From Candidatus Cloacimonadota bacterium (GTDB lineage: Bacteria; UBA4055): DNA of 64,000 bases. Every line of letters starts with the position of its first letter. Position 1 is the first letter of the stretch. Below the pieces are notes generated by a model. That model was not told the origin of the DNA. It was given only the letters and a program-made list of their open reading frames with translations, and did no database searches. Made by a program: the position numbers and the translations under genes. Where the stretch lies: assembly GCA_002742935.1 (NCBI GenBank), contig PDON01000060.1, positions 70,178-134,177 of the forward strand, written 5' to 3'. This document shows positions 4,961 through 59,722 of the stretch, piece after piece.

Positions 4961-6592
4961 ATGAAGACTATTTTTATAGTTTTATCTCTTTTTAACTGTT
5001 TATATTCCCAGATAATAATTAATGAAATTATGTTTAATCCTAATGGAAATGAATATCATACGGAATTTGTAGAGATATATAATAAAGGTAATAATCCCAT
5101 TGATTTAACAAATTTTACTATAGGAGACCAGGACGAGCAGGATAATATTTTACCTTATAATGAAAATTTCACAAACATACTACCTCCAATGAGTTATGGA
5201 ATTATACTTGATTCTTCATACGAGGAAAACTCAACATATTATGAAGATCTTATACCTACAGGAGTCTGCAGATTTGTTATAGATGACGGATCTTTTGGTA
5301 AGTATGGATTTTCCAACAGCGTTGAAGAAACTGTTATTTTAAAAGACAACAATAGCAATACTATAGATGAGGTAACTTACACAATTGATCAAAATCCGGG
5401 TTTTAGTGATGAGCGAATAATGATAGATCAAAACCTGTGGAGTAACTCTCTTTATGAAAGAGGAACGCCGGGTTTTAGAAATTCATCAACTCCGCTTGAT
5501 AGAGATCTTATGATTAAACCTATAGATAATCTAATTTATCTTGATGGAGAGGCTGGCTTTACTGTTTCTATTGAAAATAGAGGAGTTTCTGCTATAGAAC
5601 AATTTACTCTCACTGTAAAATTGGGATCAGAAGTTTTATACAGCGTAGACAACAGTTCTCCTTTAGCTCCAAATAGTGTAGTTGATTTTGAAATAGACCA
5701 ACTTAATTTAGATTATGGATACAATAAACTATCACTTATTCTTGAATGCGAAGATGATCTAAACCTTTCAAATAATCAAATCAATGTTGAAACTTTTAGA
5801 AAGTTTGGGAAAAGTAGCATAGTTTTGAATGAGTTTATGAAATCTCCAAGTGAAAACAGTTGTGAGTGGATAGAAATATACAACCTCTCTAACAATAGTT
5901 TTAATATAAAGTATTTATCTGTGGGAGATTTAACATCTCAAGTTGTAGTTAAAGACTCAGTAGAGTTAGAACCCAATGATTACTTTGTCTTTGCTAAAGA
6001 TTCTTCAATAATATCCTTTTATGGAGAGATTGAAAATATCATTATATCGAAACAATTCCCTGCTCTATCATCAGATGACAACCTAATTATTAAAGACCCG
6101 GAAAATGTAGTATTGGATAGCTTTTACTATAAGAATATTTGGAATGAAGAGTATGATAGATCTATTGAAAAAATAAACCCTAAGTTACAATCTCAAAGTA
6201 GTTCCTCTTGGGCAGTTTCAATAGAGAAAGGAACCCCATCTAAAAGAAACTCTGTTTATACGGAGATTGGTAATAATAGCAGTAAAAACAGTCTCAAACT
6301 AAAATCAAAAGTTATTACTCCAAATGGAGATGGGAAGAAAGATAATTTTATTATTGAGTATAATTTTGAAAAACCTTTTATAAATCTTTCAATTGACATT
6401 TTCAATATTAAGGGGCAGAAGATCCATACACTCTGTAAAGAGAGCTATCAAAATAGTAGTGGAACATATATATGGAATTGCAAAAGAAAAAACAGAAAAC
6501 TTAAATTGGGATCCTATCTAGCTTTCATAAAGGTGAAATCAGGAGATTTTGAAAAAGATTATAAAAAACCTTTCTATATTGGAAAAAAATAG
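4961..6592 (+). CDS. secreted protein with two lamin-tail domains (LTD) and a C-terminal CHU_C / T9SS type-B sorting domain
   Basis: Signal peptide; INEIMFNP...EFVEIYN and LNEFMKSP...EWIEIYN LTD motifs; C-terminal ITPNGDGKKDNF motif typical of the gliding-motility C-terminal domain. Confidence 0.6.
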   Translation: MKTIFIVLSLFNCLYSQIIINEIMFNPNGNEYHTEFVEIYNKGNNPIDLTNFTIGDQDEQDNILPYNENFTNILPPMSYGIILDSSYEENSTYYEDLIPTGVCRFVIDDGSFGKYGFSNSVEETVILKDNNSNTIDEVTYTIDQNPGFSDERIMIDQNLWSNSLYERGTPGFRNSSTPLDRDLMIKPIDNLIYLDGEAGFTVSIENRGVSAIEQFTLTVKLGSEVLYSVDNSSPLAPNSVVDFEIDQLNLDYGYNKLSLILECEDDLNLSNNQINVETFRKFGKSSIVLNEFMKSPSENSCEWIEIYNLSNNSFNIKYLSVGDLTSQVVVKDSVELEPNDYFVFAKDSSIISFYGEIENIIISKQFPALSSDDNLIIKDPENVVLDSFYYKNIWNEEYDRSIEKINPKLQSQSSSSWAVSIEKGTPSKRNSVYTEIGNNSSKNSLKLKSKVITPNGDGKKDNFIIEYNFEKPFINLSIDIFNIKGQKIHTLCKESYQNSSGTYIWNCKRKNRKLKLGSYLAFIKVKSGDFEKDYKKPFYIGKK

Positions 6593-10167: not shown

Positions 10168-10752
10168 ATGTTACGAGTAGCGTTAACCCTTGTTTTTGTT
10201 GTATTCTCTTTCAGTTTCGGGAAAAATCCTGTAGCTGTTTTTAATACAACAAAAGGTGTAATAAAGGTTGAATTATGGCCGGAAATAGCACCAAAAACTG
10301 TTGAAAATTTTATTGGCTTGGCTGAAGGAACAAAGGAGTTTAAAGATCCAAAGAGTGGAAAAATGGTAAAAAGACCATTTTATGACGGGCTTATCTTTCA
10401 CAGAGTTATTCCAAACTTTATGATTCAAAGTGGTTGCCCTCTTGGTACAGGAACTGGAGGTCCGGGATACCAGTTTAAAGATGAGTTTTTAAAAGATAAA
10501 AAAGGAAACCTTTTAGCCAAAAATGATTACGGCTGTATCTCTATGGCAAATGCAGGTCCTAATACAAATGGATCTCAATTCTTCATTATTACTAAAGAAG
10601 GAGGAACTCCTTGGCTTAATGGAAAACATTCCGTTTTTGGCAAAGTTATTGAGGGTATGGATGTTGCCTTAGAAATCCAAAATGTAAAGAGAAACAGAAG
10701 AGATAAACCTCTTGAGCCTGTAGTTATAAAGACTCTAAAAATTGTTAGGTAA
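10168..10752 (+). CDS. peptidyl-prolyl cis-trans isomerase, cyclophilin type, with signal peptide
   Basis: Cyclophilin motifs FHRVIPNFMIQSGCPLGTGTGGPGY and SMANAGPNTNGSQFFI. Confidence 0.9.
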   Translation: MLRVALTLVFVVFSFSFGKNPVAVFNTTKGVIKVELWPEIAPKTVENFIGLAEGTKEFKDPKSGKMVKRPFYDGLIFHRVIPNFMIQSGCPLGTGTGGPGYQFKDEFLKDKKGNLLAKNDYGCISMANAGPNTNGSQFFIITKEGGTPWLNGKHSVFGKVIEGMDVALEIQNVKRNRRDKPLEPVVIKTLKIVR

Positions 10753-10757
10753 AAAAT

Positions 10758-11624
10758 ATGAAAATCATCAATGTAATGGTAATGTTTTTACTCCTATTTA
10801 TATTTTCTTGTAGTAAAGAGAACAGCAAAAAGGAAACAAAAACAGAAACAAAGAGTAATGAGGAAAAAATGAGCAAAGAAAACCCTATAGCTGTAATGAA
10901 AACAAATCATGGTATAATCAAGATAGAGTTATGGCCGGAAATAGCACCAAAAACAGTAGAAAACTTTATTGGTTTAGCTGAAGGAACAAAAGAGTTTACA
11001 GATCCAAAAAGTGGAAAAAAAACAAAGAGACCATTTTATGATGGACTTATTTTCCATAGAGTTATTAATGACTTTATGATTCAAGGAGGTTGTCCTCTTG
11101 GTACAGGAACCGGAGGTCCGGGATATCAGTTTGAGGATGAAACTATTGTCAAAGGTAGTGAAAAGGTTTTAAAAGGAGAAATTAAAAGTGAGTCTGATGC
11201 CTTTAAAGTCTATCAACAAATGATTATGCCTTACCTTTCTAAGAATAGTGATAATGATGAAATAAATGATATTGTAGCTGAGTGCCAAGCCACAAACAGT
11301 GGTAAACCTATAATGAAACATACTGTTGAGTATTTCAAAGAGCAAACAGGAAGTAACTTTGATATTATTTCAGATGGTAAAGTAAGAGCTAAGAATGATC
11401 TTGGTTGTATATCTATGGCAAATTCAGGTCCTAATACAAACGGATCTCAATTCTTTATTATTACAAAAGAGGGCGGTACTCCTTGGCTTGATGGAAAACA
11501 CACTGTTTTTGGTAAAGTTATTGAAGGTTTAGATGTTGCACTAGAGATTCAAAAAGTTAAAACAGGTCCCAATGACAGACCTATTCAAGATGTCGTTATT
11601 GAATCTGTTACTATTGAAAAATAG
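10758..11624 (+). CDS. cyclophilin-type PPIase paralog, lipoprotein (lipobox IFSC), with an approx 90-aa insertion inside the PPIase domain
   Basis: Same conserved motifs as the upstream paralog, split by an inserted segment; tandem duplicate. Confidence 0.85.
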   Translation: MKIINVMVMFLLLFIFSCSKENSKKETKTETKSNEEKMSKENPIAVMKTNHGIIKIELWPEIAPKTVENFIGLAEGTKEFTDPKSGKKTKRPFYDGLIFHRVINDFMIQGGCPLGTGTGGPGYQFEDETIVKGSEKVLKGEIKSESDAFKVYQQMIMPYLSKNSDNDEINDIVAECQATNSGKPIMKHTVEYFKEQTGSNFDIISDGKVRAKNDLGCISMANSGPNTNGSQFFIITKEGGTPWLDGKHTVFGKVIEGLDVALEIQKVKTGPNDRPIQDVVIESVTIEK

Positions 11625-11650: not shown

Positions 11651-11680
11651 AGAGGGGGTAATATTACCCCTTCTTAATTA
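11651..11680 (+). terminator. rho-independent terminator after the cyclophilin pair
   Basis: About 10-bp stem AGAGGGGGTA / TACCCCTTCT with ATAT loop, T-rich tail. Confidence 0.5.
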
Positions 11681-12165
11681 TAAAAAATATGATCTAACTC
11701 TCTATATTATACAGATGTTTGTTATAAAAATAACGATTAAAATCTATTTTTAGAAAAATGCCTCAAAAAAATAAAATTGTTTAAGAAAACAACAAACAAT
11801 CACACTAATCTCATATTACACATAATAGATTTCATTTGAACACAAAAACCCTTAAAAACATATCCTTAAATGATCAATAAACTAAATAAAAATAATCAAA
11901 ATTAACTATTGACAGATTTTGAATAGATTGATAGGTTCTATGCCAGTATTACTGAGTATCTTTTTTATATCAAAAAAAGATAGTTTTTATGACAAAAAAC
12001 AGGGTAATATTGATGGGGCTGTTTTATAGTGTTAAAAATTGAGATTGAGACTTAGTTTTAATACTAATCATTTTTATACTAGGATTAAAATCTCAATATA
12101 AGGATTATATTTACAGCGTTTAGGTTCATTTTAAAATTTATTAGAAAAGAGAATGGAGTAAAAGT

Positions 12166-24851: not shown

Positions 24852-24956
24852 ACAATTAGCACAACTACTCGAGACAATATAAATGACCAATACTATTTTG
24901 TATAAATAGGATTAGAAGGATAGACTCTCTGCCTATCCTTGAGATTGCCCTAAAAA

Positions 24957-25083
24957 CTCAGACTTTCGAGAAGCGAGTAGTACAAGGAATTGATTTTTTT
25001 ATGGGATTGAGCTTAGAGTTACTAGGCGATTTGAGCAGAGTAAACCGATGACGCAGTAATGCGAAGTTTATCGGAAGTCTGAG
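24957..25083 (+). mobile_element. MITE-like repeat copy 1 (127 bp) with 16-bp terminal inverted repeats CTCAGACTTTCGAGAA / TTATCGGAAGTCTGAG
   Basis: Four near-identical same-orientation copies in the window; ends are inverted repeats (14 of 16 matched); internal CCTAG-TAAAC-CTAGG hairpin. Confidence 0.7.
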
Positions 25084-25123
25084 GGTAGATTTGTATCTAC
25101 CCTGAGATTGCCCTTATATTCTA

Positions 25124-25567
25124 TTATACCCTATTATTAACAGCATCCTCAAAAGAACGCCATATAAGGGTTGCACATTTAACCCTCATAGGATACTCTT
25201 TAACACCTTCAAAAATCTTTAGTTTTCCAAGCTCATTTCTACATAGATCTTTATCATACTCATCATCCTCAGCAGTAAGAAGATTTATAAAATTATCCTT
25301 AAACTTACTCGCCTCAGCTATAGTTTTGTTCTTTATAGTAGTAGTCAAAAGAGATGCACTGGATTTAGAGATTGCACAACCAACACCCGTAAAACCTACC
25401 TCTAAAATCTTGTCATCTTCAATCTTTAGATATATCTCATAATCATCCCCACATAGAGGATTTTTCCCTCTTGAATAGTGGGTAAACTTATCAAGTTTAC
25501 CAAAATTCTTTGGAGATTTATTATGTTCTAGAATCATATCTTGATATAGCCTATTATCCATACCCAT
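25124..25567 (-). CDS. sufU: SUF-system Fe-S cluster assembly scaffold, SufU/NifU-like
   Basis: Conserved Cys positions (PLCGDD, GVGCAIS, KCATL) of the SufU/IscU family; last gene of the suf cluster. Confidence 0.8.
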   Translation of the reverse strand: MGMDNRLYQDMILEHNKSPKNFGKLDKFTHYSRGKNPLCGDDYEIYLKIEDDKILEVGFTGVGCAISKSSASLLTTTIKNKTIAEASKFKDNFINLLTAEDDEYDKDLCRNELGKLKIFEGVKEYPMRVKCATLIWRSFEDAVNNRV

Positions 25568-25731
25568 ATTTTTATCCTTTATAGTTTATATTAGTCATAC
25601 AACTTGAGTTAAATATAAAACAAATTTTGAGTTCACACATCATCTTACAATTAATGAGTAAGCAATGAAAAGTTTGATTCAATGTAAATGGTTTTAATCA
25701 CAAATATTTCTATTACCTAAAAAACCTACCA

Positions 25732-25859
25732 ATCAGAGCTTTGAGAAACGAGCAGTACAAGGAATTGATTTTTTATGCGATCCATAGCCTAGTAAACCTA
25801 GGTGATTTGAGTATAAAAAAATGAGGACGCAGAAATACGAAGTTTATCGAAAGTCTGAT
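25732..25859 (+). mobile_element. MITE-like repeat copy 2, inserted between sufS and sufU; its last base overlaps the sufS stop codon
   Basis: Same 127-bp family; right TIR TTATCGAAAGTCTGA runs directly into TTA (the TAA stop of sufS on the minus strand). Confidence 0.7.
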
Positions 25860-27088
25860 TACATCATTATCTCTTTTACTTTGTGCAAACCACAAACAAA
25901 TCTATCAATATCATAGTAAGTATTGGCAAAAGATATGGAAATCCTTGCTGTTGCAGGAACCTCCAAAACCTCCATAAGAGGTTGTGCACAATGATGACCT
26001 ACCCTTATACAAACCCTCTCTTGATCCATAATAGTCCCTATATCGTGAGGATGAACACCATCTATAGTAAATGAGACTAAGGATGCTCTCTTTTCAGGAT
26101 CTCCTACAATCTTTACAAACCCCAGTTCTCTAATTTTTTCTAAAGTATATTCAAGAAGATCATCCTCTATTTTCCCAATAATATCAAAACCGATATCCTT
26201 TATAAATTGAAGAGCTTCTCCAAGCCCAATTATTTCAGCAATAGGTGGAGTTCCGGCTTCAAACTTCTCTGGAATAGGAGCAAATGTAGAATCTCTAAAG
26301 CTAACAAACTCAATCATTGATCCACCTGTTTGATATGGTGGCATAGCCTCCAAAAACTCCTTTTTTCCATAGAGTACCCCAATACCTGTTGGCCCATACA
26401 TCTTATGTCCTGAGAAGAGCATAAAATCTATATTCATCTTCTGAACATCAATAGGGATATGGGATATTGATTGAGCTGCATCTAAAACCATTATTGCATT
26501 GTGTTTTTTAGCAATAGCTGAAATTTTTTCAATAGGGTTTACACAACCAATAACATTTGATATATGTATCACAGAAACAAGAGCAGTTCGCTCATCTATA
26601 AGTGTAGCATATTTATGAAGATCAAGCTCCCCATTTTTAGTTATAGGGATAACTCTTATCTCTATATTTTTCTCTTTAGAAATTGTTTGCCAAGGGAGAA
26701 TATTCGCATGATGCTCCATCTGTGTAAGAACAATATTATCGCCCTCTTTAATAAAAGATCTCGAAAGTGAGTAAGCTAAAAGGTTAAAACCCTCTGTTGT
26801 TCCTTTTGTAAAGATTATCTGCTCTTTACTCTCAGCATTAATAAAATCTTTAAACCTTCTTCTAATCCTGTTTACATTTTCTGTAGCTCTATATGACAGG
26901 TCATAAACCCCTCTGTGAACTGTAGCGTTCTCACTTCTATAAAACCTTGAAATTCTATCTATAACTCTATCGGGTTTTGGCGATGTTGCAGCATTATCAA
27001 GATAGATGATAGGATCATTCTCCTTTAATCCATTTAGCAAAGAGAACTCTCTTCTAATTATATCGTGATTCATAACTACTCCTACCAA
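25859..27088 (-). CDS. sufS: cysteine desulfurase SufS (class V aminotransferase fold)
   Basis: PLP Lys motif SGHKMYGPTGIGVLYG; catalytic Cys region RVGHHCAQP; 409 aa. Confidence 0.9.
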   Translation of the reverse strand: MVGVVMNHDIIRREFSLLNGLKENDPIIYLDNAATSPKPDRVIDRISRFYRSENATVHRGVYDLSYRATENVNRIRRRFKDFINAESKEQIIFTKGTTEGFNLLAYSLSRSFIKEGDNIVLTQMEHHANILPWQTISKEKNIEIRVIPITKNGELDLHKYATLIDERTALVSVIHISNVIGCVNPIEKISAIAKKHNAIMVLDAAQSISHIPIDVQKMNIDFMLFSGHKMYGPTGIGVLYGKKEFLEAMPPYQTGGSMIEFVSFRDSTFAPIPEKFEAGTPPIAEIIGLGEALQFIKDIGFDIIGKIEDDLLEYTLEKIRELGFVKIVGDPEKRASLVSFTIDGVHPHDIGTIMDQERVCIRVGHHCAQPLMEVLEVPATARISISFANTYYDIDRFVCGLHKVKEIMM

Positions 27089-28239: not shown

Positions 28240-28418
28240 TATTACCTCTTTTAAAAAGACTACCTATCAACTTTGTACTTCTAGATTTAATTAAATTTTT
28301 TGTTGCTAATCTTCCAATTATAAGATCTGCTATTAAAATCTAACTCGCCTTGAACTACTCGTTTTTTTTAAGTCCTAACTTTTCAACAATACCTTTTAAA
28401 TAACTAATCAATAATTTT

Positions 28419-30623: not shown

Positions 30624-31259
30624 AATCCCTCTATCAAAATTTATTTCTGTTTCCCAAATTAGAAACTCTATATTTTAAGTTCCACTAAAAAGTAGCTATT
30701 AAACAATAACTTTCATATGATTATAGGGGTAAAGAAATATATTGTTTCGCTTCCTCATTAACATGGATGGAAAAAGCGAATTAATACTTGTAAAACTTAT
30801 AATAAATAATATTTACAAAAAAGAAACGGTTGGAATATTTTTTTATAAATTGAGTTTAGTTTATTATTTGATGATAATTAATATGGAAAGAGAGGGGTTT
30901 ATAAAAATACCAAATTTCAGTAATACCTTGCATTAAAGTCATGTGCCTCTAAAAGTTTTAATGTAAAAATCTTTTTAAAGTAAAACATAATGTTTTCAAA
31001 TGAGATCTATAAAAAATTTGTAGTTTATATAAGAGAAAGAGGCAATGAAAACAGAATATAACATCTCTATCATCATTAGTTAAAAAGTGTTTCTATCACT
31101 TACCTTGTGTAAACTTTGCTTTTTTGGATATCTTTTGTTGATCCTATAACTATCATTTTTTTAATAACATGAATTCGACATAACTACTTATCTAGTCTGT
31201 CACATAATAAATAGAATGCTGCATACAAATATATTGATCAGCTTTCCTCCCCTCAAAAA

Positions 31260-31385
31260 TTCAGACTTTTTAGAAGAAAATAGTACAAAGAGCCATTTTT
31301 TATGCGATTTGAACCTAGTAAACCTAGTTGACTTGAACAGAAAAAATCGATGACGCAGTAATGCGAAGTTTATCGGAAGTCTGGG
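31260..31385 (+). mobile_element. MITE-like repeat copy 3 (126 bp), just downstream (minus-strand sense) of the AAA-ATPase gene
   Basis: Same family; TIRs TTCAGACTTTTTAGAA / TTATCGGAAGTCTGGG. Confidence 0.65.
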
Positions 31386-31548
31386 GGTACATCGTTAATA
31401 GAGGTTTTCTTTAGATCCTTCCTTGGTGGGGAGATACATATTTTAGGAATTATGATGAAATTGATTACTATCATAATGTTATAATTGAATCCTTAGGCTT
31501 AATTATTACATAAGACAACCTATTGTTTTCATACCGAACTCAGGTTAA

Positions 31549-33081
31549 CTATCTAAACTTTTCCCATTCAAAACTACTTATATTCTTCTTCTCTTCATCA
31601 AAGTTTATTCCCACTAAATAGATATCGCTCTCTTCGCTAAGAAACTTCTCATAATATCTATTCTCTTTAATTTGGGAGATAGCATTTTCATTACCAACTT
31701 TAAACTCAAAAATGTATCTGTGGTTGTTTACAAGCAAACTCATATCCAACCTTCCCATATTTGTACTCTCCTCTACACTTATAGGAAACCCAAGAGAAGC
31801 GAGATAGGAGTAGATTACACTAGAATAAAAACCTTCATAAATATTAATGTTGTTCTTAACATAGTTTTGGTAAGGAAGAGAAGCAAATAATGAGATTAAG
31901 CTTGATTTAAAATCTTCCAATTTTGCATCAAATAGAGAGTATAGAGTTTTATTTTTATTAACCTGAGTATTGGCTACATTCAAAAGCATCATTTTCAAAA
32001 CAGATCTATTTAGACTTTGCTTAATCTCTTTATTTGGCATTTTTAGACTATATAGAATTTCATCAGCAGGGTTTATATATCTTTTTTTAACAGTTAGATA
32101 TCCACTCTGAAAAAGTAGAGCTTCTAAATTGATATTTTCAATTTCAAAAGAGTTTAAAATCTCTTCCCCAACAACTATATTTTCGAGGTTTGGAAGATAG
32201 TAGTTATTCTTTTTGATAAGATCTATTAAAAATGAAGGGTTCCCTGTCTCAAACCAATAGTTTTTATAAGTTAAATTTCCTCTTATAAAGAGTAGAATAT
32301 CAAAAGGGTTATAAACCTTATCTTTTAAAAAGTAGTATCCATTGTACCACTCTTTTAACTTTTCTAAATCAACACCTTGTAATAACGGTTTAAAAGCTGT
32401 TTCTATATCGCTATGGGTGTAACCACAGATATTACCAAAATTATTATTTAAAGTTATATCCTCAAGATTGTTTAATCCTGAAAAAATAGAAACTTTTGAA
32501 AACTTACTTACTCCGGTTAAGAATACAAACTTGAGGTATTTATCCGACCTTTTTAATATTTCATAAAAAGCTTTTAAGCTCTTCTTTGCATATTCTCTCA
32601 TTACTGGTTCTGTAATATTATCTAAGATAGGCTTATCATACTCATCAACCAAAACAACAACTTTTTGGTTATATTTTTCATAGGTTTTTTGAATCAGTTC
32701 TGATAGTTTGTTGGGAATGTCTAAATTATCATCAACATTTACCTTTAGAGCTTCAATATTTTTTTTTAAAATATAGTTAAAAACTCCATCTATACCCTCC
32801 TTTGTTGAAAGATTACCTGCAAAACTGATATGTATTACAGGAAACTTTTGACTAAAATCGTATCTTTTTTCAATATATAGACCCTTAAAATACTCTTTTT
32901 TACCTTCAAAAATAGACTTTAAAGTATCTAAAAATAGAGATTTCCCAAATCTTCTAGGACGAGAAAGAAATACATATTTATATGAATTTATCAGTTCCCA
33001 AGCCTCTTTGGTTTTATCGACATAGATATAATTATCCTCTCTAATTTCACTAAATGTTTGTATTCCAATTGGTAGCTTCAT
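31549..33081 (-). CDS. AAA-ATPase-like N-terminal domain plus PD-(D/E)XK nuclease-like C-terminal domain protein (paralog 1 of 3)
   Basis: N-terminal YVDKT...LSRPRRFGKSL motif shared with the 49457 and 51332 genes; C-terminal D...E.K nuclease-like motif (LDMSLL...IFEFK). Confidence 0.7.
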   Translation of the reverse strand: MKLPIGIQTFSEIREDNYIYVDKTKEAWELINSYKYVFLSRPRRFGKSLFLDTLKSIFEGKKEYFKGLYIEKRYDFSQKFPVIHISFAGNLSTKEGIDGVFNYILKKNIEALKVNVDDNLDIPNKLSELIQKTYEKYNQKVVVLVDEYDKPILDNITEPVMREYAKKSLKAFYEILKRSDKYLKFVFLTGVSKFSKVSIFSGLNNLEDITLNNNFGNICGYTHSDIETAFKPLLQGVDLEKLKEWYNGYYFLKDKVYNPFDILLFIRGNLTYKNYWFETGNPSFLIDLIKKNNYYLPNLENIVVGEEILNSFEIENINLEALLFQSGYLTVKKRYINPADEILYSLKMPNKEIKQSLNRSVLKMMLLNVANTQVNKNKTLYSLFDAKLEDFKSSLISLFASLPYQNYVKNNINIYEGFYSSVIYSYLASLGFPISVEESTNMGRLDMSLLVNNHRYIFEFKVGNENAISQIKENRYYEKFLSEESDIYLVGINFDEEKKNISSFEWEKFR

Positions 33082-43190: not shown

Positions 43191-45131
43191 ATGGTTACAA
43201 TTGCTGAACTTTCTCACTCATTTGCCGATAGAGTTTTGTATGATGTTGTTAATCTTTTCTTTAAGAATAGAGCAAGAGCAGGTATTGTTGGAGCAAATGG
43301 TAGCGGGAAAACAACTCTTTTAAAAATAATCAGTGGAGAGTTTGATCCCGACAAGTGTAAAATTACCATTAGTGGCAAAAAAAGTATAGGTATGCTTTCT
43401 CAGGATATTGTGGATCTTGAACCTATATCTATGCTCCAATATTTTAAGGATGAAACCAATATTTCATTTCTGGAAAAGAGACTTAGAGAGCTTGAAAACA
43501 AACTAAATAATAGTGGTGATAATACTAATGTTTTAAAGGAGTTTGAAGAGATAACTCAACAGTATGAATTTTATGAAGGTTATAGTTTTGAATCTCTTTG
43601 TGGTAGAATAATTAAAGGTTTAGGGTTTAAAAATGATGACCTTTACAAAAAATGTGATCAGTTTTCCGGTGGAATGAAAACAAGAATAGGTCTTGCTCTT
43701 CTTCTTCTTAAAAAACCTGATATCATGCTTTTAGATGAGCCTACAAACCACCTTGACACCGAAAGTATGGAATGGCTTGAATCCTACCTTAAAGATTATC
43801 ATGGAACTATAATAACAGTTTCCCACGATATTAGATTTTTGGATAAGGTTACAAACGAAACCTATGAAATATTTAATAAAACCATAACAAAATATTCCGG
43901 TAATTACACATACTATAAGAAAGAGAAAGAGAAAAAGCTTGAACTTCTAAAAAAAGAGTATGAATCTCAAGCGAGAGAGATTAAGAGACTTGAGGATTTT
44001 ATTGAAAGGTTCAGATACAAAGCTTCCAAAGCAAGCCAAGTTCAAAGTAGAATAAAGATGCTTGAAAAGTTTAAGGAGATTAAGCTTGAGAGTAGTGAAA
44101 AATCTGTTAAGATAAAATTTGCTCACAAAACACAAAGTGGGAACTCTGTCGTTGAGCTGAAAAACATATCTCATAGTTATGGAGAAAAAACTGTTCTTGA
44201 AAATGTAAATCTCCAATTTTTTAGAGGGGAAAAGATAGCAATTGTTGGTGTTAACGGAGCAGGTAAATCTACACTTTCAGCTATAATTTCAAAAAGTTTA
44301 GATCAAACATCAGGCAGTGTTGAGTATGGTTATAATGTAAAGCCGGCTTATTTTTCTCAGTCATCTTCAGATACCCTAAATAAGGAAAACTCTATTTTAG
44401 AGGAGATAAACACAGTTAAGCATGATTACGATGATGTAGGGATAAGATCTCTTCTAGGTGCCTTTCTGTTTTCAGGAGATGATATTTATAAAAAAATAAA
44501 GGTTCTTTCAGGTGGCGAAAGATCTAGAGTTGCTCTTATCAAAATTTTAATGAACGATACCAACTTTCTTATCTTAGATGAGCCTACAAATCATCTGGAC
44601 AGATCTACTAAAGATATCTTCCAAAAAGCTCTTTTAGAGTATGAAGGTACAATAATGATAGTTTCCCATGACAGATATTTTTTGGATAATCTTGTAGATA
44701 AGGTTATTGAAGTTAAAAATAACTCTGTAAAGGAGTATACGGGGGATTACTCATACTTTGTATGGAAAAGAGAGCAGGAAACAAATAGCAATATAGAAGA
44801 GACAGCAACAGTTGTTTCAACATCCCAAAAGGAGAGTTCCAAAGGTTTTAAAAGTAAAGAACAGAGAAGATTGGAGGCTGAAAAGCGTAAAGAAAATGCT
44901 CAAAAAACTAAAGGTCTTAAAAAAGAGCTTTCTGAGGTTGAATCTCTTATTGAAAAATATGAAGAGGAAAAAAGTAGTACTGAATCTCTTTTATGTTCCG
45001 AAGAGGTTTTAACTGATAGCCAAAAAATAGTATCTCTAAATATTAGGTTAAAGGAACTTAACGAACTCATTGAAACCAATATGGAAAAATGGGAAGAGAT
45101 AACTATGGCGATAGAGGAAATTTTAGGGTAA
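43191..45131 (+). CDS. ABC-F family ATPase (two NBDs, no TM domains, coiled-coil C-terminal tail; Uup/YheS-like)
   Basis: Two Walker A (GANGSGKTT, GVNGAGKST), two signatures (FSGGMKTR, LSGGERSR), two Walker B; Lys/Glu-rich C-terminus. Confidence 0.85.
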   Translation: MVTIAELSHSFADRVLYDVVNLFFKNRARAGIVGANGSGKTTLLKIISGEFDPDKCKITISGKKSIGMLSQDIVDLEPISMLQYFKDETNISFLEKRLRELENKLNNSGDNTNVLKEFEEITQQYEFYEGYSFESLCGRIIKGLGFKNDDLYKKCDQFSGGMKTRIGLALLLLKKPDIMLLDEPTNHLDTESMEWLESYLKDYHGTIITVSHDIRFLDKVTNETYEIFNKTITKYSGNYTYYKKEKEKKLELLKKEYESQAREIKRLEDFIERFRYKASKASQVQSRIKMLEKFKEIKLESSEKSVKIKFAHKTQSGNSVVELKNISHSYGEKTVLENVNLQFFRGEKIAIVGVNGAGKSTLSAIISKSLDQTSGSVEYGYNVKPAYFSQSSSDTLNKENSILEEINTVKHDYDDVGIRSLLGAFLFSGDDIYKKIKVLSGGERSRVALIKILMNDTNFLILDEPTNHLDRSTKDIFQKALLEYEGTIMIVSHDRYFLDNLVDKVIEVKNNSVKEYTGDYSYFVWKREQETNSNIEETATVVSTSQKESSKGFKSKEQRRLEAEKRKENAQKTKGLKKELSEVESLIEKYEEEKSSTESLLCSEEVLTDSQKIVSLNIRLKELNELIETNMEKWEEITMAIEEILG

Positions 45132-45274
45132 AATTATAGCATTCTTAAAATAGATAGTATCTACTGAAAGAATAGATCTTATTCCATTTAGCCTAAGTGG
45201 AACATAACTATTTATCTACTATTTAGCATAACAAATAGAAGACAACATAAAACTTTATTGATCAGTCCTAAAAA

Positions 45275-45401
45275 GTCAGGCTGTCTAGAAACGAGTAGTA
45301 CAAGGAATTGATTTTTTATGTGATAGGAGCCTAGTAAACCTAGGTAACTTGAGTATAAAAAAGCGATAACGAAGTAATACGAAGCTTATCGGAAGTCTGA
45401 G
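45275..45401 (+). mobile_element. MITE-like repeat copy 4 (127 bp), about 70 nt downstream of the ridA stop
   Basis: Same family; followed by GGGCAGA-ACACAAGA-TCTGCCC hairpin. Confidence 0.65.
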
Positions 45402-45470
45402 GGCAGAACACAAGATCTGCCCCTACGATATACTCTCGATCAGTTTAATATTTTAACGGCATAATACCAA

Positions 45471-45851
45471 CTACCCCTTAACGGCAATAGTCTCAATCTC
45501 AACCATTACTCCGAGAGGAAGTTTTGCAACTTGGTATGCGGCTCTTGCAGGAGAGTTCTCTGCATAACATTTACCGTAAACCTCATTCATAGCAGCAAAG
45601 TTGTCCATATTATCAATAAGACAAGTAGATTTAACAACATCAGCAAATGTATAACCCGCTTCTTTAAGAATAGCTTCAATATTTTTCATAACCATCTCAG
45701 TTTGCTCAGTTACTCCACCCTCAACAATCTTACCGGTTTTAGGATCTACAGGGATCTGTCCTGAGATATAAAGAGTTCCGTTAACTTCTACAGCTTGGGA
45801 GTATGGACCAATTGCCTTTGGAGCATTTTCGGTAAAAATAATCTTTTTCAT
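45471..45851 (-). CDS. ridA: RidA/YjgF-family reactive enamine/imine deaminase
   Basis: 126 aa; FTENAPKAIGPYSQA and C-terminal PARAAYQVAKLPLGVMVEIE motifs typical of RidA. Confidence 0.85.
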   Translation of the reverse strand: MKKIIFTENAPKAIGPYSQAVEVNGTLYISGQIPVDPKTGKIVEGGVTEQTEMVMKNIEAILKEAGYTFADVVKSTCLIDNMDNFAAMNEVYGKCYAENSPARAAYQVAKLPLGVMVEIETIAVKG

Positions 45852-49456: not shown

Positions 49457-51034
49457 TTACTCCTCTTTTAAAATCTCCTCTAAGCTAACCACCTCATGAT
49501 CCTTCACATTCCTATCCTTTTCATTAAAAGCTATACCCATACAGACAACTTTTTTCTTATCATTCAAGTATGGTTCATAATATTTTTTACTCTTTATCTG
49601 TTCAATAGCAGATTTTGCACTATTCATCTTAAATTCCATTACATAGATAAAATCTCCAACCTTTACAACAGCATCAATTACACCATTATTGGTCTTTTGC
49701 TCTACATCAATATTTATGCCCATAAATTTTAGAGCTAAATAGATAATTGTATGGTAATAACTTTCATACTTTCCGGTTCCGAGATTGTTTGGAATATCAG
49801 CAAAAATAGATCTAAGGGTTAATATAAAGGCTCTAATATCATTTTTTTCTAAAGAGGATACTAAATCCTGTATTTTTTGAGAATAATAGCCACTTTCAAT
49901 TCCTGCAAATTCAGCCCCTAAAAGCAGATAAAAAGATTGTTTTACCTCCATATTAGGATATCCTATTTTGTAAGATATAGAAAAATTATTTGGATCCATC
50001 ATCTTCTCTTTAATAGTGAGATAGCCTGTTTGAAAGAGAAGAACACTCATGTTTATATTTTCTAGATTATAGGAGTCTAAAGCTGATTCAGGAACATTTA
50101 TAAGATCATCATAATCTCTAACATTAATGCCCTTCTCTTTTATAAGCTTTATTAAAAAGGTCGCAGTTCCTGTTTTAAACCAAAAGTTTTTAAACTCTCT
50201 ATACCATAGAAGACTTAAAACAGAATACGGGTTATAGATAGAACTCTTAATATCCCAAGAGTAGCCATTATACCATAGTTTGACTACCTCTATTAGCCGT
50301 TTTCTATTAATACCATACTTCTCTTCAATAGTTTTTAGATAATCTCCATAATTATCTATAATCTCTTTTTCTGTATAGCCTGCTATCTCTGCATAATTTT
50401 CATCAATTGTAATATCTGTTAAATTATTGAGTTCACTAAAAAATGATACTCTACTAAACTTTGAGACCCCTGTTATAAAAAGTAGTTTTATATGATTATC
50501 TAAATCTTTAATTACAGAGTAAAATTGTTTCAATATCTCTCTATTTTTTTCAGCTGTTTCTAAATTGGTAATATAATCAATTATCGGCTTATCATACTCA
50601 TCTATTAAAATTGCAACAGGCTTTTCTTTACTTAGTTTTATTATTAGTTCTCTAAATTTTTCAGAAAATATTTCTGAGCTGTCAAAAATAACATTATTAT
50701 CTTTAGCAATACTATTAAGTTCTTTCTCTATAGCTTCTTTCAAATCTAAAGAGTTATAGGGTAAATTTGCAAAACTGATCTTTATAACCGGAAACTTTTC
50801 CTCAAAATTCCACTTATTATATATCCAAGTTCCTTCAAAAAGTTCTTTATTTCCATTAAAGAGTTCTTTCATTGTATTTACTAGGAGAGATTTCCCAAAT
50901 CTTCGTGGACGGGAAAGGAAGTAGTATTTTCCTGTTGAAATAAGTTTATTGATAGTTTTTGTTTTATCTACATAAACACAATTATCTCTTCTGAGTGTTG
51001 AGAGTTCTTGATATCCTAAGCCTAGTTTTTTCAT
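49457..51034 (-). CDS. AAA-ATPase-like plus PD-(D/E)XK domain protein (paralog 2)
   Basis: About 65% identity to the 51332 gene over the N-terminus; shared YVDKT / LSRPRRFGKSL motifs; C-terminal IDAVVK...IMEFK nuclease-like motif. Confidence 0.7.
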   Translation of the reverse strand: MKKLGLGYQELSTLRRDNCVYVDKTKTINKLISTGKYYFLSRPRRFGKSLLVNTMKELFNGNKELFEGTWIYNKWNFEEKFPVIKISFANLPYNSLDLKEAIEKELNSIAKDNNVIFDSSEIFSEKFRELIIKLSKEKPVAILIDEYDKPIIDYITNLETAEKNREILKQFYSVIKDLDNHIKLLFITGVSKFSRVSFFSELNNLTDITIDENYAEIAGYTEKEIIDNYGDYLKTIEEKYGINRKRLIEVVKLWYNGYSWDIKSSIYNPYSVLSLLWYREFKNFWFKTGTATFLIKLIKEKGINVRDYDDLINVPESALDSYNLENINMSVLLFQTGYLTIKEKMMDPNNFSISYKIGYPNMEVKQSFYLLLGAEFAGIESGYYSQKIQDLVSSLEKNDIRAFILTLRSIFADIPNNLGTGKYESYYHTIIYLALKFMGINIDVEQKTNNGVIDAVVKVGDFIYVMEFKMNSAKSAIEQIKSKKYYEPYLNDKKKVVCMGIAFNEKDRNVKDHEVVSLEEILKEE

Positions 51035-51331: not shown

Positions 51332-52903
51332 TTATAGTAATTCCATCTCTTCTACACTTGCTACTTCATAGCCTTTAACATTTCTATCATCTGAATCAAA
51401 AGCAACTCCAAGACAAATAATATCTCTTTCGTCATCCAAATATCGTTCATAATACTTTTTCTCTTTAATCTGTTTTAGAGCAGCCTTTGCATTACTCATC
51501 TTAAACTCCATTATATAAATATAATCTTTAGTTTTTACGACCGCATCAATTCGCCCATGATTGGTATTAACCTCCACATCAATCTGAACTCCTATAAACT
51601 TTAGAGCTAAATAAAGAACGGTATGGTAATAACTCTCTTTTTGATTGCTAGCAAGATTATTTGAAATATCTGCAAAAAGAACCCTAATACTTTTGATAAA
51701 ATCTTCAATTTTATTTTTTTTGAGAGCAATCATTAACCTATTAACCGTATCAGAATATTTCAAATTATGAAGTCCGGCAAATTCCGCTCCCAAGAAAAGG
51801 TAGAGAGAAGATCTTACTTCCATATTGGGATAACCCATTTGAAACGAAACAAACTCCTCATCCCTAATATATTCTTTAATGGTTAAATATCCGGTTTGAA
51901 ACAAAAGAACAGAGGTATCAATATTAGAAATTTCGTAAGAATCTAAAACGCTTCTAGAAATATTTATTTGATTATCATACTCTTTAACATCAATATCTTT
52001 TTCTTTAATTAGCTTGGTTAAAAATGTAGGAGTTCCGGATTTAAACCAAAAATTTTCAAATTCCAAAGAGTTAAAAAGATTTAAAACAGAATAAGGATTA
52101 TAAACAAAATTTTTAGCATCCCAAGAGTATCCATTGTACCAAAATTTTATTCTTTCTAATAATCTTTTTCTATCCCAATTATACTCTTCTTCGAGTTCAA
52201 TCAAATAATTTTCATAATTATCTATAATCTCCTCTTCTGTATATCCTGTAATATTAACATATTTTCTATTAATGGTAATATCTGTTAAATTATTAAGTTC
52301 TGAAAAAATTGAAACCCTACTAAATTTAGAAACTCCCGTGATAAACAAAAATCTAATATGAGCATCTAAATTTTTAAGGACAGAGTAGAAATTTTTCATA
52401 ATTTGTCTATTCTTTTCCGCTGTGTCTCGTGATTTTTCATCAATATAATCTATAATTGGTTTATCGTACTCATCTATCAAAATTGCAACAGGATTTTTTT
52501 TGCTAAGTTTTATTATTAGTTCTTGAAATTTTTCTTTTACAGTTATAGTTTCAAGCTTAACTTTGTGATTTTTTGCTATATCCTCTAGATTTTCTCGAAG
52601 AACAATATCTAAGCCCCTATTTGCATAATCTAAACTCGCCATACAAATCTTAATTATAGGAAATGTTTCAGCAAAATTATATTTATCCTCTATCCAAGTA
52701 TCTTTAAAAAGCTCTTTATTTCCTTGAAAAATTTCTTTAATAGTGTTTAGAAGTAAAGATTTTCCAAATCTTCTTGGGCGAGATAGGAAACAATAAGTTT
52801 CATTATTGATTAGTTCATAAATATACTCTGTTTTATCAACATAAACACAGTTTCTTTTTCTAAGCATTGATAACTCTTGAGTTCCAAGTCCAAGTTTTTT
52901 CAT
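51332..52903 (-). CDS. AAA-ATPase-like plus PD-(D/E)XK domain protein (paralog 3, tandem with paralog 2)
   Basis: As above. Confidence 0.7.
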   Translation of the reverse strand: MKKLGLGTQELSMLRKRNCVYVDKTEYIYELINNETYCFLSRPRRFGKSLLLNTIKEIFQGNKELFKDTWIEDKYNFAETFPIIKICMASLDYANRGLDIVLRENLEDIAKNHKVKLETITVKEKFQELIIKLSKKNPVAILIDEYDKPIIDYIDEKSRDTAEKNRQIMKNFYSVLKNLDAHIRFLFITGVSKFSRVSIFSELNNLTDITINRKYVNITGYTEEEIIDNYENYLIELEEEYNWDRKRLLERIKFWYNGYSWDAKNFVYNPYSVLNLFNSLEFENFWFKSGTPTFLTKLIKEKDIDVKEYDNQINISRSVLDSYEISNIDTSVLLFQTGYLTIKEYIRDEEFVSFQMGYPNMEVRSSLYLFLGAEFAGLHNLKYSDTVNRLMIALKKNKIEDFIKSIRVLFADISNNLASNQKESYYHTVLYLALKFIGVQIDVEVNTNHGRIDAVVKTKDYIYIMEFKMSNAKAALKQIKEKKYYERYLDDERDIICLGVAFDSDDRNVKGYEVASVEEMELL

Positions 52904-59002: not shown

Positions 59003-59569
59003 TTCTCTCTTCCTCCATTTTAAATTGTTGTTCGCCCAAAACGGGCACAGTTTACTTAAACAATCGCATAGGACTATGCAATCAATAATAATTATGACAA
59101 ACTAGGAGTAAACTGCGTACTTAACTTTTTAAGTATACATTATATTACCCCCGACATAATTAATATCATATTTTTTTATACCCTTGTCAAGCTCTTTATT
59201 TTTACTTTTGGGAATACATTTTTCAGCTAAAATGGAAGTTGTGAAACTACTATAAATTATAAACACAATTCCTCTTTGTTATTTTTTATTTATTGTTTTT
59301 ATTTTTAATAAAACTATTTAGATAGGATACAGTACTGTATTATACTTTAATCTAAAACACTTTTATGTTATAAGCAACTTATTATAGAATTTTTTTTAAA
59401 TAAATTATACAAACATTCCTATTTTCATAACTAAAATTCCACTGTAGGTGATTTTCCTTCAAAATTCCTATTCCAGAACTAACCAAAGTTTTGCAATTTA
59501 ACCTGAGTTCGATATAAAACAAATACCTATTTTATGTAATAATTAAAATTAGAAATATATCCTGTGTGT

Positions 59570-59640
59570 GTACCCTGAGGTTCTCGAAGGGTATAACTAT
59601 ATGATTATAGTTTTCGTTCCCTTCGAGAGCCTCAGGGTAC
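59570..59640. repeat. 22-bp GC-rich inverted repeat (GTACCCTGAGGTTCTCGAAGGG / CCCTTCGAGAGCCTCAGGGTAC) with a nested 7-bp AT palindrome in the 27-nt loop
   Basis: Arms pair at 22 of 22 positions on the + strand (one G-U wobble); sits in an otherwise AT-rich intergenic region. Confidence 0.7.
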
Positions 59641-59722
59641 TCTCTTTTCTATGGATATCTATACTTATTACATTAAATATTAGTTAAATGCTTATGTCGA
59701 ACTCAGATTTTTTCAATAAATC

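Follow-up and report, generated by a model that had tools for sequence, protein, structure and literature searches.

MITE insertions typically carry target duplications of 2-10 bp (PMC11602168). Repeats of the ERIC, Correia, and RUP types are co-transcribed to give long RNA hairpins, with orientation-dependent effects on mRNA processing or stability (PMC10969869). SPRITE, a terminator-like repeat of pneumococcus, is more frequent at the 3' ends of genes and between convergent genes (PMC3049150). In Pseudomonas putida, ssr9, a module of the IS110-family element ISPpu9, rides a recombinase into palindromic intergenic REP sequences (PMC12288879). IS1630 of Mycoplasma fermentans, which belongs to the IS30 family, targets inverted repeats and duplicates them, with reported target duplications of 19-26 bp; those of strain M64 are 16, 23, 25, and 26 bp and accompany only four of seven copies (PMC2853133, PMC3317919).

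The window analyzed here, a 64,000-nt stretch of DNA from an uncultured Cloacimonadota host, carries a non-coding, hairpin-forming repeat element of ~141-143 bp. An earlier note had placed four copies at 24957-25083, 25732-25859, 31260-31385, and 45275-45401, and all four are present there. A 20-mer from the right end of the element matches the window four times at ≤3 mismatches, and shuffled sequences are expected to give 0.01 matches. The four copies are pairwise 77-86% identical over the shared core (BLAST) and 68-74% identical over the full 144-nt alignment. The unit length of 126-128 bp proposed in the earlier note is too short, with a left boundary that stops 17 nt early. When the copies are aligned together with their flanks, the extra left part is seen to consist of a 12-nt terminus, (T)TGAGRTTGCCYT, and then an A5 tract, both outside the left inverted repeat. 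On the right, conservation stops at ...GGAAGTCTG (...GTCTG). The A5 tract is unchanged in 13 of 13 copies, while the adjoining left terminus varies.

The 16-bp inverted repeats near the ends, CTCAGACTTTCGAGAA and the reverse complement CTCAGACTTCCGATAA, match at 14 of 16 positions, and the whole core (~127 bp) folds into one long imperfect hairpin, as the earlier note had predicted. In two copies (L042a and L045b) the inverted repeats co-vary: a left T>G change accompanies a right A>C change, and G>T accompanies C>A. The reported lack of a conserved ORF also holds. Peptides read from the internal ATG have 0-16 codons and differ in each of the four copies; over the whole family they have 0-31 codons, and none is conserved between copies.

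Additional copies were found outside the window. Ten kilobases past each window end were examined, and a sixth regional copy lies there, at L038:11926-12067. Metagenome contigs were scanned with a gapped pattern made from the columns that are invariant in the first five copies. One stringent scan returned only six stretches (PDWJ01 and PDWI01), which hold eight more distinct copies and lend no support to the hundreds of genome-wide copies predicted in the earlier note. Other repeats of the window recur in the PDWJ01 and PDWI01 contigs at 98-99% identity, and we infer from these sequences that the contigs come from the same population or a very close one. In total, 13 distinct full copies (four in the window, one at L038, and eight in L041-L046) and one decayed copy are known, and they are 68-91% identical. 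All full copies, the decayed copy, and the remnants described below are intergenic, and they lie on several contigs. A covariance model, R1, was built from the 13 copies and run over the window and the related loci.

The limits of the element are fixed exactly by two unrelated loci, because the duplications at both stop precisely at identical element boundaries. In L044, a 143-nt element at 11703-11845 is flanked by a perfect 23-bp duplication, AGGGGTAAATAAATTACCCCTTT, at 11680-11702 and 11846-11868. In L043, a 141-nt element at 208-348 is flanked by a perfect 17-bp duplication, AAAAATCCTAGATTTTT, at 191-207 and 349-365. Each duplicated stretch is a complete hairpin plus T residues. The left inverted repeat sits 17 nt inside the end that these duplications set. 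The reconstructed pre-insertion site of L044 reads A6-hairpin-T3, and its other strand has a good terminator layout directly after the valyl-tRNA synthetase gene. The search for target-site duplications that the earlier note had recommended thus gave perfect cases in 2 of 13 copies (17 and 23 bp), with none clear at the other 11.

Further evidence of movement comes from comparisons between loci. In a related species (L031; SufS 73% identical), sufS and sufU overlap by 4 nt, whereas in the window they are separated by a 297-nt spacer that contains a copy of the element. The L038 copy interrupts another repeat, termed Rep-B, of which a paralogue in L041 is uninterrupted; this comparison shows no long duplication. 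Decay products are also found, as solo termini and remnant clusters at window positions 25103-25114 and at L045:8359-8425. These copies, flanking duplications, nested insertion, and unrelated neighbors bear out the earlier description of a dispersed, non-coding, hairpin-forming, MITE-like family. The repeat also leaves a mark on assemblies. A Logan contig from SRR6011892 (L030, 5565 nt) starts and ends inside copies, the third window copy at its positions 1-186 and the second at 5477-5565, so the repeat limits short-read assembly of this organism.

The remnants at L045:8359-8425 lie upstream of a 198-aa ORF and comprise two left termini followed by an oppositely oriented 29-nt left-end fragment. 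One of these termini, TTGAGATTGTTGAAAAAA, is a rare variant that otherwise occurs only in the L044 copy.

The first window copy (w1) occupies 24940-25081 on the plus strand (model R1, 144.6 bits). Its left terminus, TGAGATTGCCCT, is at 24940-24951, the A5 tract is at 24952-24956, and the left inverted repeat is at 24957-24972. An apical hairpin, GCTTAG-AGTTA-CTAGGC, is at 25011-25027, and the right inverted repeat ends ...GGAAGTCTG at 25081. A hairpin, GGATAGACTCTCTGCCTATCC, lies directly left of w1 at 24918-24938 (-9.8 kcal/mol). Another, AGGGTAGAT-TTGT-ATCTACCCT, abuts the right end at 25082-25103 (-13.3 kcal/mol), 20 nt past the sufU stop on the minus strand; we interpret it as the targeted terminator-type hairpin. 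The two flanking hairpins are alike in shape, and their stem difference is compensated (GGATAG/CTATCC on the left, GGGTAG/CTACCC on the right); the alignment of the flanks gives p ~0.05. They may, speculatively, be an old and diverged target duplication.

A second TGAGATTGCCCT, identical to 24940-24951, is found at 25103-25114 on the plus strand, and similar remnants occur at L045:8359-8425. The presence of this sequence on both sides of w1 was considered as a target duplication. This was rejected, because other copies have the same sequence as their own left terminus. We interpret the solo terminus instead as the remnant of a second, truncated insertion.

The second copy (w2) lies in the 297-nt sufS-sufU spacer at 25713-25857 (plus strand, 124 bits), and its right end is 1 nt from the sufS stop codon (25859-25861). 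It carries a 7-nt insertion, CCTACCA, between the A tract and the base of the hairpin. The third copy (w3), at 31243-31383 (plus strand, 123.8 bits), has a variant left terminus, TTTCCTCCCCTCAAAAA. It lies 165 nt after the stop of a gene with AAA-ATPase_like and PDDEXK_9 domains and ~620 nt upstream of sufB. The fourth copy (w4), at 45258-45399 (plus strand, 148.1 bits), is located between convergent ABC-F (stop at 45131) and RidA-family (stop at 45471) genes. Its left arm has a "GCTGTCTAG" variant of the inverted repeat, and the right arm lacks a matching change. A hairpin, GGGCAGA-ACACAAGA-TCTGCCC, abuts its right end at 45400-45423 (-12.4 kcal/mol). A 64-nt stretch directly left of w3 (31178-31241, plus strand) is shared only with w4 (45202-45265, plus strand) at 78% identity. 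This stretch may be a left arm particular to one subfamily, or else a separate small repeat.

A decayed fifth copy is present in the sufC-sufD spacer at 28254-28395, on the minus strand (23.5 bits, E 0.03). Its local alignment score is 88, compared with 44.8 ± 5.3 for shuffled sequences. The claim that all copies have the same orientation thus applies to the four intact window copies, which are all on the plus strand, and fails for this one.

The abutting hairpins are far more frequent than expected. In 5 of 12 loci, the right end of the element lies no more than 1 nt from the start of a hairpin of ≤ -10 kcal/mol. Of 3000 intergenic positions drawn at random from the window as a control, 17 (0.6%) had such a hairpin (p ~4e-9). 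Several copies also have a hairpin that ends just before the left terminus.

Hairpin targeting would also account for a preference for gene ends. All four intact window copies lie downstream of minus-strand genes, as the earlier note had described, and these genes encode a NifU_N/SufU-type protein, SufS, a protein with AAA-ATPase_like and PDDEXK_9 domains, and a RidA-family protein. Stops of the SufU-type, AAA-ATPase_like/PDDEXK_9, and RidA-family genes are at 25124, 31549, and 45471, respectively. In 9 of the 11 copies that are informative, the right end of the element points toward the 3' end of a gene running in the opposite direction; 5 of 12 copies lie between convergent genes, where orientation is uninformative. 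Within co-directional spacers the rule holds in four of five cases and is broken by the decayed sufC-sufD copy. The orientation rule drawn in the earlier note is thereby upheld for those four spacers, but not for the copy at 28254-28395, for L043, or for L045b. The L043/L046 copy lies between divergent genes. Overall, the orientation preference is weakly significant and only suggestive. Neighboring genes are unrelated housekeeping genes (including those for ValRS, HU, MutS, an MFS transporter, a TPR protein, an ABC-F protein, and RidA), and no transposase was found among the neighbors of the copies.

The family is a real, lineage-restricted MITE with two notable features, namely hairpin-spanning duplications and a strand-biased fold. 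Bacterial MITEs are smaller than ~800 bp and have terminal inverted repeats of at least 10-15 bp; the element here has ~141-143 bp, 16-bp inverted repeats, and target duplications at two copies, and it is dispersed in intergenic regions and devoid of a conserved ORF. A caveat to this assignment is the position of the left inverted repeat, 17 nt inside the end, an offset that simple MITEs do not usually have. Because of the flanking duplications, the abutting hairpins, and the sufS-sufU overlap in the relative, we consider it probable that the family is a non-autonomous transposable element (a bacterial MITE) that targets terminator-like hairpins. An autonomous element or transposase gene with the same ends was absent from the window and from ~170 kb of related loci. 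Since the element encodes no protein, a transposase made elsewhere in the genome presumably moves it.

We propose that such an element would insert beside terminator-type hairpins so that its right end meets the hairpin at its 5' base. The whole hairpin would be duplicated in the process, as the two clearest cases suggest, yielding target duplications of 17 and 23 bp. Copies would accumulate at the 3' ends of genes because terminators lie there. The most likely mobilizer would be a hairpin-recognizing DDE transposase of the IS1630 type, and the assignment to an IS30-like enzyme is tentative.

IS1630 is the only precedent that we found for duplications spanning a hairpin. As reported for IS1630, the duplications made by the Cloacimonadota element are long and variable (17 and 23 bp), comprise a whole hairpin with its inverted repeat, and accompany only some copies. 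However, IS1630 is an autonomous element of 1.2-1.4 kb with a transposase gene and 27-bp terminal repeats, whereas the element here is ~143 bp, non-coding, and has a subterminal left repeat; the two were compared by description. The proposed connection to IS30 elements is one shared property described in the literature, and not one of sequence. If hairpin-duplicating insertion is confirmed, the family would be a miniature counterpart of the rare behavior of IS1630.

The closest functional analogue is SPRITE, and homology to it is not expected. Both are small, AT-rich, non-coding interspersed repeats in which a stem is followed by a U-rich tract, and for neither is a parent IS known. However, SPRITE has an 18-bp duplex, terminal repeats consisting only of AAAA/TTTT, and no established target duplication (PMC3049150). 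In contrast, the element here has a 127-bp hairpin, 16-bp repeats, and long duplications, and resides in an unrelated phylum.

ERIC, Correia, and RUP elements are likewise ~100-200 bp with terminal inverted repeats, and ERIC is also ~127 bp. Unlike those of MITEs of this type, the duplications here (17 and 23 bp) are atypically long. No similarity to ERIC primer sequences, the Correia left end, or Tn3-type ends was detected, in what is a weak test. The ssr9 module is similar in being small and non-coding and, as proposed for the element here, it uses the recombinase of another element and enters palindromes. However, it inserts at one specific AG in a conserved REP, lacks a long duplication and terminal inverted repeats, and is a promoter-bearing small-RNA gene. 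These likenesses are ones of analogy, and we do not claim homology of the Cloacimonadota family to IS1630, SPRITE, ERIC/Correia/RUP, or ssr9. An integron attC-like site was also considered. Sites of the attC type bear RYYYAAC/GTTRRRY boxes. The ends of the element are without such boxes, and this candidate was rejected.

The arrangement of the element on the strand of the upstream genes suggests what it might do after insertion. On this strand, ~95 structured nucleotides are enclosed by a closing stem of ~12-16 bp, and in 12 of 13 copies T5 comes no more than 1-2 nt after the stem. This T5 (A5 on the top strand) is the most conserved part of the left end. The resulting hairpin-U5 layout looks like an intrinsic terminator; however, a simple terminator scan made no call at the element sites. 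Copies are probably co-transcribed with upstream genes, and the element probably replaces or reinforces the displaced terminator and may stabilize the upstream mRNA. A role in 3' UTRs, mRNA stability, or termination is therefore plausible as judged from the layout, whereas a terminator role in particular is better regarded as possible than as expected. If hairpin-duplicating insertion is confirmed, the family would be a natural case of a mobile element that copies and replaces terminators, with a bearing on the evolution of 3' UTRs and operon-internal attenuation. For most purposes, the family is one more lineage-specific MITE family.

The second notable feature, which the earlier note does not mention, concerns the top strand, which is the plus strand in the window and is opposite to the upstream genes. 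It is the better-folding strand of every one of the 13 copies, with mean values of -37.6 versus -24.3 kcal/mol as RNA and -16.6 versus -11.5 kcal/mol as DNA. The decayed copy shows the same bias: the strand that corresponds to the top strand has the more stable fold (-26.2 versus -11.4 kcal/mol). The consensus structure of the top strand has 42 pairs, in which 92.3% of cells are paired and six pairs are changed on both sides; its covariation score is matched by only 2 of 500 shuffles. The 42-pair stem contains 58 G.T cells but only 13 A.C cells. G.T is the majority state at three stem positions and is present in at least three copies at eight, whereas A.C never occurs in more than two copies. 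When variable stem positions are counted instead, G.T and A.C are nearly equal (12 versus 11). The signal of asymmetry lies in the G.T states, which have persisted or already existed in source copies, as against A.C states that occur as singletons.

As a source of the excess of G.T, background mutation bias is rejected because the local GC skew of the plus strand is -0.13 to -0.24 (20-32 kb), compared with +0.35 for the top strand of the element. The bias in folding fits neither a purely double-stranded DNA transposon nor an RNA role on the gene strand. It may point to a stage at which the top strand is active in single-stranded form, and this keeps explanations based on single-stranded DNA or on an RNA module alive.

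In one such explanation the element is a strand-specific folded unit (RNA or single-stranded DNA), which would home to terminator hairpins through a mechanism undescribed for miniature elements. We consider this unlikely. If it were true, the unit would copy a whole hairpin and deliver its own hairpin-U5, and would thus be a mobile terminator or 3'-UTR cassette. That mechanism would then have left its mark in the better folding of the top strand and in the subterminal left repeat, neither of which would be accidental.

The element might alternatively derive from a single-strand DNA transposon, either a palindrome-associated derivative of the IS200/IS605 type or a REP-like one, moved by a Y1/HUH transposase. 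The top strand would then fold as a DNA hairpin during transposition and insert beside hairpins that are exposed in single-stranded DNA. The strand-asymmetric fold of all 13 copies, which is retained with DNA parameters, is as expected, and so are the G.T mismatches at intermediate or high frequency at eight stem positions, with A.C at none. The single orientation common to the intact window copies and L038, the tight association of copies with hairpins, and the asymmetric left end, with 17 nt outside the hairpin, would also be accommodated. However, such families are without target duplications and terminal inverted repeats, and duplications of 17 and 23 bp are seen here. Moreover, no conserved tetra- or pentanucleotide is found at the left junction, and the junctions have no more than a T-rich or CC(T) end in common. 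At none of the loci examined was a Y1 transposase gene found. GC skew suggests that the top strand of the window copies is off the strand expected to be single-stranded in replication, a weak indication in that skew here follows gene direction. We therefore give this origin a low probability. Elements of the IS200/IS605 and REP/RAYT families have a fixed short target motif at the left junction and a separate subterminal hairpin at either end. Membership in these families themselves was rejected, given the inverted repeats, the long duplications, and the lack of a fixed left motif.

It is also improbable, and decidedly so, that each copy is a gene or module for a small structured RNA transcribed from the top strand, whether antisense to the 3' ends of genes or otherwise regulatory, and hitchhikes on a transposase. 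The consensus pairing and covariation of the top strand, the excess of G.U over A.C, and a stem that is kept while the apical loops vary are properties that a structured RNA would have. However, the two arms of a palindromic MITE share descent from a single repeat, which produces the same statistics of pairing, and by stem positions the G.T and A.C variants are almost equal. The ssr9 module of ISPpu9 provides a precedent for a mobile small-RNA module that targets palindromes (PMC12288879), yet insertion of the IS110 type makes no long duplications. In addition, the copies lack a conserved promoter-like sequence at the left end and a consistent terminator at the right end, and at E values up to 10 they have no Rfam match above chance level.

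Spread of a host terminator or 3'-UTR module by duplication and recombination, and not by transposition, would explain the invariant hairpin-T5 layout, the location of copies at gene ends, and the presence of four of six regional copies in or beside suf, but it is highly improbable given the exact flanking duplications with identical boundaries at two unrelated loci, the dispersal of copies beside unrelated genes on different contigs, and the solo termini and nested insertions.

Searches beyond these loci are consistent with a transposable element confined to one lineage. A 19-mer, GAAGYTTATCGRAAGTCTG, was searched against 185,579 species genomes, from which the source genome is evidently absent. 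The 28 loci returned (L001-L028) were rejected as chance matches: each is a lone match in an unrelated taxon, none extends past 19-29 nt, and by our estimate ~17 should occur by chance. A scan of viral contigs gave only four chance matches, and a blastn search with the consensus against plasmids and phages gave nothing. Rfam 15 had no match at gathering score over the whole window; at E values up to 10, only chance-level matches appeared, in two copies (12-20 bits, E 1.3-6.2). Neither a sigma-70 nor a Bacteroidota-type promoter is convincingly matched by the left terminus. A search of the literature gave no description of MITEs or interspersed repeats in Cloacimonadota. The window's SufS is 100% identical to a protein assigned to a Candidatus Cloacimonadota MAG (GCA_002748965.1). 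The nearest other relative of SufS in a collection of 5.8 billion proteins is 73% identical and the next is 53% identical, so the lineage is sparsely sampled. The G+C content is 31%. Cloacimonadota are uncultured, and the family explains intergenic breaks in assemblies of this organism.

Four of six copies in the ~84 kb examined adjoin or lie in sufBCDSU. They are located upstream of sufB, in the sufC-sufD spacer, in the sufS-sufU spacer, and after sufU. This concentration could reflect chance, a hot spot, or regulatory use. The family explains the long spacers of the suf operon in this organism. The relative with 73% identical SufS gives a weak model R1 match in its own sufC-sufD spacer (38 bits; alignment z ~3.7). 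A long hairpin of ~120 nt, in the opposite orientation, occupies L031:3743-3864 in that spacer. The intact copy w2 lies inside the operon, upstream of sufU, which is still to be transcribed, and its A tract is shifted 7 nt from the stem. This single case fits selection against termination at that site.

Two other repeat families occur in these loci. Rep-B is an intergenic family of ~300 nt with several small hairpins; its members are 87-93% identical and often adjoin the element. They are located at L038:11809-11916, L038:12072-12240, L041:169-484, L042:3823-3894, and L045:1352-1414, and the L038 copy of the element sits inside one of them. The "empty" paralogue in L041 has its own 32-nt insert, TCTTCTTTTTTGTCTGAAAAAGAAGCAAAAGC, at L041:277-315, with AAAAGC repeats on both sides. 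This insert forms a hairpin whose loop, GTCTG, is the same as the right end of the element, which is probably a coincidence. Rep-C is a ~210-nt palindrome at window positions 59500-59709, within a 720-nt spacer (59003-59722). Partial copies that are 79-99% identical occur at window positions 31499-31561, L042:1-102, and L038:12274-12307, and one of the partial copies overlaps the 3' end of the AAA-ATPase gene beside w3.

This AAA-ATPase gene is one of three paralogous genes of 510-525 aa that lie on the minus strand within 22 kb (31549-33081, 49457-51034, and 51332-52903). Two were scanned, and both carry AAA-ATPase_like (PF09820) and PDDEXK_9 (PF08011) domains. Two of the paralogues form a tandem pair with ~72% nucleotide identity. 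The expansion hints at a selfish or defense-related gene family. Elsewhere in the window, at 10223-11560, the adjacent ORFs 10168-10752 (a cyclophilin-type Pro_isomerase by Pfam) and 10758-11624 share segments that are 83-84% identical in nucleotide sequence, and this pair looks like a recent tandem duplication.
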